This document shows, piece after piece, positions 46,789-48,745 of a stretch of DNA of 61,068 bases. Numbering within the stretch: the stretch's first letter is position 1; each line of letters begins with the position of its first letter. Where the stretch lies: positions 1 through 61,068 of the forward strand of contig JAWLCZ010000001.1 of NCBI GenBank assembly GCA_041686835.1, read 5' to 3'. This DNA comes from Paenibacillaceae bacterium (GTDB taxonomy: Bacteria; Bacillota; Bacilli; Paenibacillales; JAWLCZ01). The translations under genes and the position numbers were made by a program. The notes beneath the pieces were generated by a model. The model was not told the origin of the DNA. It saw nothing but the letters and a program-made list of their open reading frames with translations, and ran no database searches.

Positions 46789-46814
46789 CGATTTGATTAT
46801 ATACAGGGGGAAAA

Positions 46815-46928
46815 ATGTTGTTATCCCATAAGTCCGGAGATGTTGTAATAGGGATTGACGGCGGAGGCCCCCACACTCGCGTCATGGTTGCAGACTTGTC
46901 AGGAAATGTTCTTTCTGTCGGCGTCTGA
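46815..46928 (+). pseudogene. N-terminal fragment of a BadF/BadG/BcrA/BcrD-type ATPase (N-acetylglucosamine-kinase-like)
   Basis: MLLSHKSGDVVIGIDGGGPHTRVMVADLSGNVLSVGV then stop. This is the phosphate-1 loop (IGIDGGG-T) only, and no continuation appears in any frame. Confidence 0.5.
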
Positions 46929-47065
46929 AGCGCTGCTTTTCAGCGGTTGAATTGAACGGTTGAGAAAAACAGAGGAATGGAGCGGAATCCCATGATCACC
47001 GAAAATGAAAGCGCTATTTTGATACGGAGATCGATAATTCGCATCGCTTTCAATCAACAGCCCGC

Positions 47066-47094
47066 TTTACACATCTTCTCCTGAGGCGTAATAT
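47066..47094 (+). promoter_or_regulatory. Candidate sigma-A promoter of the riboswitch transcript
   Basis: TTTACA, 17 nt, TAATAT. Confidence 0.5.
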
Positions 47095-47119
47095 ACATTG
47101 CATAATTCAAAAAGGTGAA

Positions 47120-47303
47120 TCGATTCCTGATCGCTGAATTTCTGAATAGGAAACGGGGGAACCAAAGTGTGGCGGTTCGTCGGTGTGAGAGCCGGCTGAG
47201 CTTGCCGCATGGGGTGAATCCCGGAACGAAAGCACATGGAATTTCGTTTCGGGTAGGGCGACTCTCAAACGCCCGAATCCGTCAGCTAACCTCGTAAGCG
47301 TGG
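47120..47303 (+). promoter_or_regulatory. c-di-AMP riboswitch aptamer (ydaO/yuaA class)
   Basis: All hallmark blocks appear in order: TCGCTGAAT.., ACGGGGGAACCA, GGGGTGAATCC, GGTAGGGCGA, CCCGAATCCGTCAGCTAACCTCGTAAGCG. Confidence 0.9.
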
Positions 47304-47342
47304 ATGAAGAGAGGAGTTGAAGAGTGCGATCGAAACATTCGA

Positions 47343-47374
47343 CCACAGAGTTCACACCTCTGTGGTTTTCTATT
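47343..47374 (+). terminator. Riboswitch expression-platform terminator
   Basis: CCACAGAG-ttcacac-CTCTGTGG followed by TTTTCTATT. Confidence 0.75.
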
Positions 47375-47425
47375 GGGTAAATCGGACCGAACGCATAATA
47401 AAAACAAATGATAAGGAGAATAACA

Positions 47426-47605
47426 GTGGGTATCGTCTTGTTTTTATTTATAAATTTGTTTATTCTCGGGCTCCTTTTCATGAAAATAACGGGATTCCGG
47501 TTTCAAGCCCCGTTTGCCAGGAACCGGTTCCGCAAAGAAATATGGATTTCGTTCACCCAAGCGATCGTGTTCTCGGTTTTAATCAAGTGGGCGTTCTTTT
47601 CATGA
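47426..47605 (+). CDS. 59-aa two-TM small membrane protein downstream of the c-di-AMP riboswitch
   Basis: GTG at 47426, 7 nt after AAGGAG. Sequence VGIVLFLFINLFILGLLFMKITGFRFQAPFARNRFRKEIWISFTQAIVFSVLIKWAFFS. A hairpin follows: GGGCGTTC-ttttcat-GAACGCCC, then ..GGTTTTT. Confidence 0.45.
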   Translation: MGIVLFLFINLFILGLLFMKITGFRFQAPFARNRFRKEIWISFTQAIVFSVLIKWAFFS

Positions 47606-47619
47606 ACGCCCGCCGGTTT

Positions 47620-48495
47620 TTACAGGTCGGACGGAAGTTCAGAAGGAACCCAAAGGTTCGTCACATCGATTCCTCTTTCATCGCTTGCCTTAAGATCGCG
47701 AAGGAAGTCGAGAAAACCGACAGCCGGTTTCCAGCCGAGTACGCGTGCCGCTTCCGACAGGTCGTGCTGTTCCACCTTCTCGGGAAGCGGGATCGCATAT
47801 TTCTCCAGCAGCCGGCTTGCTCCGGGAACATGCTCCTCGCACCAGCCGATCCCGAGATCGCGGAAGTTATGAACGACTTCAGGCGGCATGCCGTGATCGG
47901 TATGCACGATCGTCTTGAAAAGACCGACCTTGCGCTCCAATGCCGCTTGAACGGATGCCACAGTGGCCGCCGCAATATCTCTCCGATCCACTCCGTTTCG
48001 CAGGAGGCGCGCCCCGAATTCCAAATATGGCCGTGGAATAAACTCATGATAGCGGAGCATGACGATGGAAGCGCCTGTCATTTCATGATAAGCTTTGCAT
48101 AAATCTTCGCCGATCACTTTGGTCACCCCGTAAACGGAACCCCATCCGTAAGCCATGGACGAAGCATAAACGATTGACTTGACGCCAGCTTGTCTGCAGG
48201 CTTCCAATACGTGAAACGTCCCGACCACATTGACCGCAAAGATCGTGTCGTCACTCACAGGAGGATGATGGGCGCAATGCCAGGCGGCAAGGTGCACGAC
48301 GGCGTCCATTCCTTCCACTGCGCGTTGAACATCCGCCGGAGTGCGGGTGTCACAGCGGATAAACTCGACCTGCTTTAAATCATCTGCGGAAGGCGGAACT
48401 ACATCTGCCATACGAACCGCAAGTCCCGCCTTCAGAAGCGCCCTACAGACGGCTTGCCCGCCATTTCCGGAAGCGCCGGTTACAAGAACTTTCAC
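47620..48495 (-). CDS. NAD-dependent epimerase/dehydratase (extended SDR)
   Basis: VLVTGASGNGGQAV (Rossmann) and YGVTKVIGE (YxxxK). GTG at 48495, after AAAGGAG. Confidence 0.8.
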   Translation of the reverse strand: MKVLVTGASGNGGQAVCRALLKAGLAVRMADVVPPSADDLKQVEFIRCDTRTPADVQRAVEGMDAVVHLAAWHCAHHPPVSDDTIFAVNVVGTFHVLEACRQAGVKSIVYASSMAYGWGSVYGVTKVIGEDLCKAYHEMTGASIVMLRYHEFIPRPYLEFGARLLRNGVDRRDIAAATVASVQAALERKVGLFKTIVHTDHGMPPEVVHNFRDLGIGWCEEHVPGASRLLEKYAIPLPEKVEQHDLSEAARVLGWKPAVGFLDFLRDLKASDERGIDVTNLWVPSELPSDL

Positions 48496-48745
48496 GTTTA
48501 AATACTCCTTTCTTATTCTCATATTGTAGAGAGCTGCATCCGTCTGTCAGCTGAATCGGAAACCCTCCGCGAAGAGTCAATTTCATTATAGCGGCAGAAA
48601 TCGCTTCTTATAAGAGCTGAAAAGTTTATTAGTTAGTTACCGAAACGTAAGCATACGTTTATTTTGCTTGGTCCAAAGTCTTAAGCCCATGTTATGACGA
48701 ATTCATCCGGGTGATCCGATATAGTAGGCTTGAGAGGAGTCGATC

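Follow-up and report, generated by a model that had tools for sequence, protein, structure and literature searches.

The stretch of DNA considered in this study, positions 1 to 61,068 of contig JAWLCZ010000001.1 from the assembly of a Paenibacillaceae bacterium (GCA_041686835.1), will be called the window. Near position 47,100 of its 61,068 nucleotides (nt) lies a riboswitch for cyclic di-AMP (c-di-AMP) in an odd context. On balance I consider it somewhat more probable than not that this is an intact "off" riboswitch module from a leader of K+-uptake genes, now standing before a lineage-specific open reading frame (ORF) of 59 codons that has its own ribosome-binding site (RBS) and terminator. 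As a riboswitch it is an ordinary member of a well-known family; its context is largely explained by the loss of a K+-uptake operon, and it does not represent a new kind of system. The oddity that is left lies in an orphaned module that has not decayed, is expressed, and comes joined to a lineage-specific micro-ORF with the look of a complete gene. The genome (3.98 Mb, a draft of 286 contigs, estimated to be complete) is the sole representative of its GTDB genus and family.

An Rfam scan of the whole window gave a single hit, to RF00379, the c-di-AMP riboswitch of the ydaO/yuaA class (47122-47315 on the forward strand, 93.1 bits, E = 1.2e-20). The match spans the full model (positions 1-134), that is, the whole pseudo-two-fold aptamer, and lies 55 bits above the gathering score of 38. 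A first-pass annotation, made from the letters of the sequence, had expected a strong match at about 47120-47303, and what it said of the surrounding layout is borne out as well: the aptamer has its own promoter and a terminator-type expression platform (the latter conserved with the leaders of kdp operons), and the 59-codon ORF is the sole coding potential before a second hairpin and a convergent SDR gene. The first terminator consists of a 10-bp hairpin at 47341-47367 followed by TTTTCTATT. Its helix is fully paired, hairpin and U-tract begin 26 nt past the aptamer, and it folds at -14.9 kcal/mol (z = -3.1); it is predicted to be the switchable terminator of the riboswitch. An AT-rich spacer of 35 nt separates it from the RBS. 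The second terminator, a hairpin at 47587-47613 plus a run of five T's, folds at -19.4 kcal/mol (z = -4.95). The stop codon of the ORF sits in the loop of this hairpin, and the terminator ends (at 47623) 3 nt inside the 3' end of the SDR gene.

The origin of the leader was sought by blastn, with positions 47100-47425 as the query and 400 genomes of the order as the target. Similarity reaches well beyond the conserved aptamer cores. The best match, in genome G035, aligns at 79% identity over 241 nt (query 32-270), a region that includes the variable aptamer inserts and the terminator. Of the 29 best loci, 26 place the match in an aptamer of a kdp-operon leader, usually the first of a tandem c-di-AMP pair, and Rfam recognizes two full-length aptamers of RF00379 on the same strand in 18 of 20 related loci. 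The usual layout in relatives is a first aptamer with its terminator, a second aptamer, a KTN/TrkA-N-like gene of about 130 amino acids (aa), kdpF, kdpA, kdpB, kdpC, and a gene of about 780 aa (KdpD N-terminal-domain type). Similar single leaders are found upstream of ktrAB genes in two relatives that lack kdp, and the safest name for the leader type is "K+-uptake leader, most often kdp".

The window was then aligned with the first aptamers of 20 relatives, giving 21 leaders in all (alignment A1). The expression platform common to them runs GAGAGAGGATGATGAAGCTTGTGATCG, then GACCACAGGG...CCTCTGTGG, then a T-tract. On the other side of the aptamer, positions 47065-47113 of the window are 78-88% identical to the stretch directly upstream of the aptamer in several kdp leaders. 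The homology is bounded, extending from the promoter (about 47065) to just past the T-tract (about 47375), and neither 46900-47064 nor 47368-47640 has a counterpart in the kdp loci of relatives. In a maximum-likelihood tree of 60 aptamers, the window copy falls among the K+ leaders, split with 98/93 support from four other copies in the same genome. As judged by these comparisons, the promoter-aptamer-terminator module (about 47065-47375) is homologous to K+-uptake leaders, mostly to the first aptamers of tandem kdp leaders.

The module bears no sign of decay. Decay was counted in leave-one-out fashion over columns invariant, or nearly so, in the other 20 leaders. Of 90 near-invariant columns, four differ in the window, as compared to 0-7 (median 2) in functional kdp leaders, and it keeps all 69 of the columns that are invariant across the 21 aligned leaders. 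Its Rfam score of 93.1 lies in the upper part of the range for kdp leaders (69-97), and the terminal branch of its aptamer (0.17) is shorter than the median (0.35).

The relatives' leaders offer some observations in their own right. In this order, kdp operons are as a rule preceded by tandem c-di-AMP leaders, to which a third, divergent copy is often added. Ten of the 20 kdp leaders (L037, L041-L043, L046-L048, L051, L052, and L054) have an extra aptamer of RF00379 on the opposite strand, 300-500 nt upstream, and in nine of those ten loci it accompanies a tandem pair, making three c-di-AMP riboswitches within about 1.2 kb. In most kdp operons of the Paenibacillus type, a conserved ORF of about 130-150 aa, KTN/TrkA-N-like and with the motif "...LVSAPNKAGE.FIR.L...", separates the tandem riboswitch from kdpF-kdpA (examples are L037:2103-2504, L044:2128-2535, and L065:9692-9240). 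It may be an RCK-type subunit of Kdp that senses c-di-AMP or K+. Within the aptamer, the insert after the first conserved block carries GTGAGAG (47185-47191 in the window), complementary to the loop CTCTCAC of the GGGCGACTCTCACCGCCC hairpin (47262-47268). Both motifs are invariant in leaders of the K+-uptake type (n = 21, alignment A1), and the window's own variant of the second, CTCTCAA, pairs over 6 bp. The pairing may be a subtype-specific long-range contact that lies outside the Rfam consensus structure.

Genes for K+ or osmolyte transport or for the cell wall are the typical targets of RF00379, an association that does not define the RNA family. The genome considered here has eight copies, that of the window included. 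Of the others, five stand before genes for cell-wall enzymes (DUF348/G5, NlpC/P60, and LysM types), one before that of a KtrB/TrkH-type K+ transporter, and one before that of a KamA-like aminomutase. Seven of the eight therefore have a K+/osmolyte-transport or cell-wall target downstream, and the window copy alone has none. The copy before the KamA-like gene (lysine 2,3-aminomutase family), at C36:17417-17565 on the reverse strand, suggests that synthesis of an osmolyte of the beta-lysine type is under c-di-AMP control. The organism can be taken to make the ligand, since it encodes two diadenylate cyclases with the DAC domain. That the window copy arose by recent duplication of one of the genome's other riboswitches was ruled out, as the conserved cores alone match, and neither the tail of the unit nor its upstream spacer has a further copy in the genome that would mark it as a repeat or mobile element.

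The transporter that the leader would be expected to serve is missing, not only from the locus. With queries from relatives, tblastn of the genome found no KdpA, KdpC, KdpD, KTN-like protein, or KimA, and with KdpB it found other P-type ATPases alone, at about 30% identity. Pfam KdpA (PF03814) has no match in the genome at E <= 1, and no remnants of kdpB, kdpC, or kdpD were found around the riboswitch unit. Nor does the window contain a second aptamer: a relaxed cmscan of 46900-47750 recovered none even at E <= 10, and no degenerate copy. KdpA occurs in 18 of 61 relatives and in eight of 33 genera of the order, a patchy distribution that points to loss of kdp as a common event. The first-pass annotation had proposed, as one of two readings, that the riboswitch was orphaned by a deletion. 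As an account of its origin this is supported, since the leader is homologous to K+-uptake leaders, the genome lacks kdp, and the window lacks the second aptamer: the switch seems to have lost its transporter operon. What does not carry over is the support claimed from a kinase-gene remnant just upstream, which is circumstantial and shows rearrangement alone.

How the unit might work can be proposed from a known relative. In the leader of the kdpFABC operon of Bacillus thuringiensis BMB171, binding of c-di-AMP promotes intrinsic termination, and low c-di-AMP under K+ limitation leads to read-through (Wang et al. 2019, PMC6488665). By homology to that riboswitch, the response to the ligand and its direction are most likely the same here. 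The module would descend from the leader of a K+-uptake operon, its nearest relatives being the first aptamers in the tandem c-di-AMP riboswitches that precede kdp(F)ABC elsewhere in the order, with the second aptamer and the transporter genes lost in this lineage. At high c-di-AMP, binding would stabilize the aptamer and the first terminator would form, yielding a dead-end RNA of about 270 nt. At low c-di-AMP, as under K+ limitation or osmotic upshift, read-through would give a transcript of about 520 nt that carries the ORF and ends at the second terminator. I regard it as marginally probable that the unit is still maintained by selection and operating. That its relevant output is a translated membrane peptide with two helices is a more tentative proposal, falling somewhat short of probable, and the further step, that selection keeps the leader since it drives a new micro-membrane protein, whether one that arose de novo or one refashioned from the first transmembrane (TM) hairpin of KdpA, is distinctly doubtful.

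The unit is transcribed. Near-identical sequence is present in two sludge metatranscriptomes (X1 and X2), both with RNA that has read through the first terminator into the unit, in contigs that are strandless. The contig from X1 (351 nt, depth 4.8, two mismatches) covers 47273-47623, crossing the first terminator, the RBS, and the whole ORF, and it stops at the end of the T-tract of the second terminator. Its start is a break in the assembly graph, at a conserved core common to the riboswitches of other organisms. The contig from X2 (269 nt) covers 47412-47680 and continues about 60 nt beyond the second terminator into the SDR gene. Coverage of the window by RNA is low, about 2.6% in X1 and 1.8% in X2, all in short contigs. 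The small-ORF unit is the sole locus of the window found in both samples, and it provides the longest contig of X1.

The ORF itself was examined for signs of being a gene. An in-frame ATG at 47408 would extend it to 65 aa. It contains no Pfam families, and its only match in an index of 5.8e9 proteins is itself. An exhaustive phmmer/HMMER search of 1.84e9 representatives found no homologues, two large phmmer matches being rejected as tandem-repeat proteins in which weak matches add up. None were found in back-translated scans of 185,000 species genomes and the JGI metagenomes, and a six-frame search at the level of the family and tblastn of the genome itself revealed no relative and no paralogue. 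In the collection of papers searched, none links a small membrane protein to a c-di-AMP riboswitch. The missing homologues are weaker evidence than they would be in a well-sampled group, because the genome stands alone in its GTDB genus and family.

By composition, the ORF looks partly like a gene. Its in-frame codon score is 0.271 bits per codon, as compared to 0.312 +/- 0.158 for real windows of 59 codons, and above the 95th percentile of off-frame values. The GC content at its three codon positions is 0.36/0.32/0.59, as compared to 0.60/0.40/0.64 in genes, the pattern expected of a hydrophobic protein in this genome. Synonymous usage falls between the uniform null, where 2.7% of recodings reach the observed value, and the usage of the genome, where 2.6% are as low. 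AlphaFold2, run without an alignment, predicts a helical hairpin (helices 2-26 and 31-58, pLDDT 79). The predicted loop between the two hydrophobic helices is strongly basic, with six basic residues, and would fit a topology with both termini outside.

These results leave the other reading of the first-pass annotation, an uncharacterized small membrane protein regulated by c-di-AMP, with mixed standing: the unit is intact and transcribed, but the ORF has no homologue anywhere. The particular suggestion that the peptide is an accessory subunit of a transporter has nothing in its favor: the unit has no transporter beside it, and the ORF does not resemble KdpF. KdpF is a peptide of about 25 aa with a single TM segment that ends in YAL(I/L)xPE(K/R)F (all the KdpF peptides of 26 relatives end in PEKF or PERF), and the ORF is twice as long and lacks the motif.

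Several considerations weigh against an intact switch serving a real gene. An ORF unique to one genome permits neither a test of conservation nor one of dN/dS; its synonymous codon usage is intermediate between random and gene-like; and T-rich DNA yields hydrophobic, helix-like ORFs by chance, leaving the prediction of two helices with no weight. Since kdp is patchy and the flanks of the unit lack synteny to kdp loci, the loss of the operon is read from the homology of the leader and not seen directly. With one genome in the GTDB family there is no means of dating that loss, and had it been recent, the leader would be undecayed all the same. The aptamer tree is too poorly resolved to prove orthology with kdp leaders, the alignment of the expression platform being more informative. 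Finally, the RNA evidence consists of assembled contigs that lack strand and have only crude depth, and some DNA carry-over is possible.

The first alternative is that a kdp or ktr operon was recently deleted and has left behind a leader, an ORF, and a second hairpin that are all functionless, the ORF being a chance frame in T-rich DNA. By my estimate, the chance of an open frame of 59 codons is about 5% per frame at this composition, and to the absence of homologues and the merely intermediate codon usage may be added the truncated kinase pseudogene directly upstream, a sign that the region has suffered deletions, and the frequency with which kdp is lost in this order. However, a dead leader would not be expected to be conserved like its functional orthologues, with a branch below the median, nor would chance readily assemble a promoter, an ideally spaced RBS, an ORF, and a strong terminator overlapping its stop codon into a complete gene-like unit. 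The lack of any trace in DNA of the second aptamer or of kdp suggests that the loss was not very recent, and read-through RNA is found in both metatranscriptomes. Four strain differences were seen between 47273 and 47680, none of them inside the ORF, a weak point against functionlessness that does not reach significance (P about 0.1). I judge it rather unlikely that the unit is dead. If it is, it offers a natural example from which to estimate the persistence of orphaned riboswitches.

A second alternative concerns the source of the ORF: that it is what remains of the first TM hairpin of kdpA, about 55 codons, after deletions on both sides, and has since taken on a new role or drifted. Among 282 small ORFs of relatives' kdp leaders, the best blastp match is to the N-terminus of KdpA (21.9 bits, the 95th percentile of shuffles being 20.4), and a profile of 22 KdpA N-termini gives 4.9 bits, its positions 4-49 running collinear with positions 5-51 of the ORF from the start codon. 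The empirical p is 0.005 by shuffles, 0.023 by shuffles that preserve the TM-loop-TM arrangement, and 0.021 among 568 real TM-loop-TM windows, only one of the 568 windows of this genome matching in register as well; but the score is tiny, the criterion of register was picked post hoc, and the p values come from several comparisons and are uncorrected. The first codons, GTG GGT ATC GTC after AGGAG, resemble the ATG GGC ATT GTA of kdpA, yet there is no homology to kdpA at the level of DNA and no match of Pfam KdpA to the ORF. A caution comes from the other end of the protein, where an equally "good" match to the C-terminus of KdpA (30% identity over 56 aa, the last two helices) was rejected as noise when 7-14% of shuffles equaled it. 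The origin would also require two separate deletions. The resemblance to the KdpA N-terminus is weak and suggestive only, and descent from kdpA seems to me somewhat improbable. Were it true, a nearly erased coding relic beside an intact leader would mean that the leader has long been kept by selection.

A third possibility makes the ORF irrelevant and the RNA the product: the tail (47376-47623) would act in trans as a small RNA (sRNA), or as antisense to or by interference with the SDR gene, or the leader would serve as an RNA that binds c-di-AMP. The own promoter and two terminators, pointing at the 3' end of a convergent gene, are what such an RNA might have, and sRNAs containing B12 riboswitches (EutX, Rli55) provide precedent. 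The contig from X2 does continue 60 nt past the second terminator into the SDR gene, but this terminator is strong, and the contig from X1 ends there, so that little transcription should reach the SDR gene. Shuffled sequence folds as well as the read-through tail does (z = +0.24), which speaks against a structured sRNA and fits a messenger RNA; the tail has a strong RBS, and an open frame fills it exactly; and no conserved tail exists for comparison. A noncoding product I therefore hold to be very unlikely.

The last possibility, a chimeric assembly at a conserved aptamer core or a false-positive aptamer, has in its favor the 286-contig draft and eight conserved-core copies in the genome, up to 96% identical over 48 nt, but it can be set aside as extremely improbable, given one continuous alignment to the same kdp-type leader on both sides of the core, an Rfam match far above the gathering score, and junctions from 47273 to 47680 that are independently confirmed by contigs of three other public runs (47273-47623, 47412-47680, and, from a DNA run, 47307-47457), by which the arrangement is no assembly artefact.

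The switch that I favor, intact and placed before a new ORF, may be compared with known systems. It shares with the B. thuringiensis kdp riboswitch the family RF00379, the sequence of promoter, aptamer, and intrinsic terminator, and a leader type tied to high-affinity K+ uptake, differing in that no kdp lies downstream or anywhere in the genome, that the sole downstream frame is an orphan ORF of 59 codons, and that the response to the ligand is here a prediction. The leaders of kimA (ydaO) and ktrAB (yuaA) in Bacillus subtilis likewise combine the same aptamer family with a terminator-type off switch for K+-uptake genes, whereas the window has no transporter downstream; the leader of ktrB in this genome is another copy, clearly set apart from that of the window. 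Riboswitch-containing sRNAs include EutX and Rli55, which respond to adenosylcobalamin, and the S-adenosylmethionine riboswitches SreA and SreB of Listeria; their tails are conserved and act as RNA. Like these, the window riboswitch has its own promoter and terminators and no conventional target gene after it, but its tail is an unstructured open frame equipped with an RBS. Tandem c-di-AMP riboswitch doublets number 77 in one catalog, and in most of them a terminator separates the two aptamers (Sherlock et al. 2022, PMC9481103). The window module, including its terminator, is homologous to the first unit of the kdp doublets in Paenibacillus-type genomes, where relatives have the same inter-aptamer terminator, and it differs from doublets in having a single aptamer, the second gone without a trace.

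For annotation, the locus implies that the presence of a riboswitch is no guarantee of the usual regulon: the leader of a K+ pump can outlive its operon, intact and transcribed. If the unit is under selection, a small membrane peptide (or an RNA) would join the c-di-AMP regulon, and the locus would be a concrete instance of a new gene taking over an existing regulatory RNA module. If the ORF is indeed the product, it would be a new small protein regulated by c-di-AMP, such as one that modulates membrane or osmotic homeostasis or the Ktr system of K+ uptake that is still present, and the re-use of the riboswitch for a new gene would have been caught in the act.

Table 1. Features of the riboswitch unit and its immediate neighbors, by position in the window.
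Feature	Position	Strand	Basis
BadF/BadG-type sugar kinase, N-terminal fragment, about 40 codons then a stop	46806-46928	+	tblastn; pseudogene remnant
Sigma-70-like promoter, TTTACA-17 nt-TAATAT	47066-47094	+	Consensus scan
c-di-AMP riboswitch aptamer RF00379, full length	47122-47315	+	Rfam, 93.1 bits
Expression-platform linker, GTTGAAGAGTGCGATCGAAACATTC in the window, GATGATGAAGCTTGTGATCG in relatives	47316-47340	+	Alignment A1; conserved with kdp leaders
Intrinsic terminator 1 (predicted), GACCACAGAG / CTCTGTGGTT then TTTTCTATT	47341-47375	+	Folding and alignment A1
Ribosome-binding site AAGGAGA	47413-47419	+	Read from sequence; 7 nt before GTG
Orphan ORF, 59 aa, GTG start	47426-47605	+	ORF list; TGA stop at 47603-47605
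Terminator 2 (predicted), 10-bp hairpin then CGGTTTTT	47587-47623	+	Folding; marks end of unit
SDR/epimerase gene, convergent	47620-48522	-	ORF list, Pfam

The genes on either side of the unit (Table 1) are not informative about its past. The kinase-gene remnant noted in the first-pass annotation (46815-46928) is real. Similarity begins at 46806, an RBS and a start codon are still present, and positions 46806-46916 are 62% identical (tblastn, E = 1e-9) to residues 6-40 of a full-length paralogue elsewhere in the genome, the 344-aa product of C98:9630-10664, which is of the BadF/BadG type (N-acetylglucosamine-kinase-like). No further remnants of a kinase gene were found around the riboswitch unit. 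The remnant marks a rearranged neighborhood and is not part of the unit. The orthologues of the SDR gene (80-87% identity, in Paenibacillus and Cohnella) have differing neighborhoods that carry neither the riboswitch nor a homologue of the ORF, and, because these neighbors are unrelated, the flanking genes reveal no ancestral state. The SDR/epimerase ORF is listed as 300 aa and its orthologues are 288-291 aa; its true start is probably an internal ATG about nine codons downstream. Downstream of an orthologue with 87% identity, on a metagenome contig (L070:5220-5383), there is a sequence that by eye resembles a thiamine pyrophosphate (THI-box) riboswitch, CTGAGAGG...ACCTGATCTGGGTAATGCCAGC.

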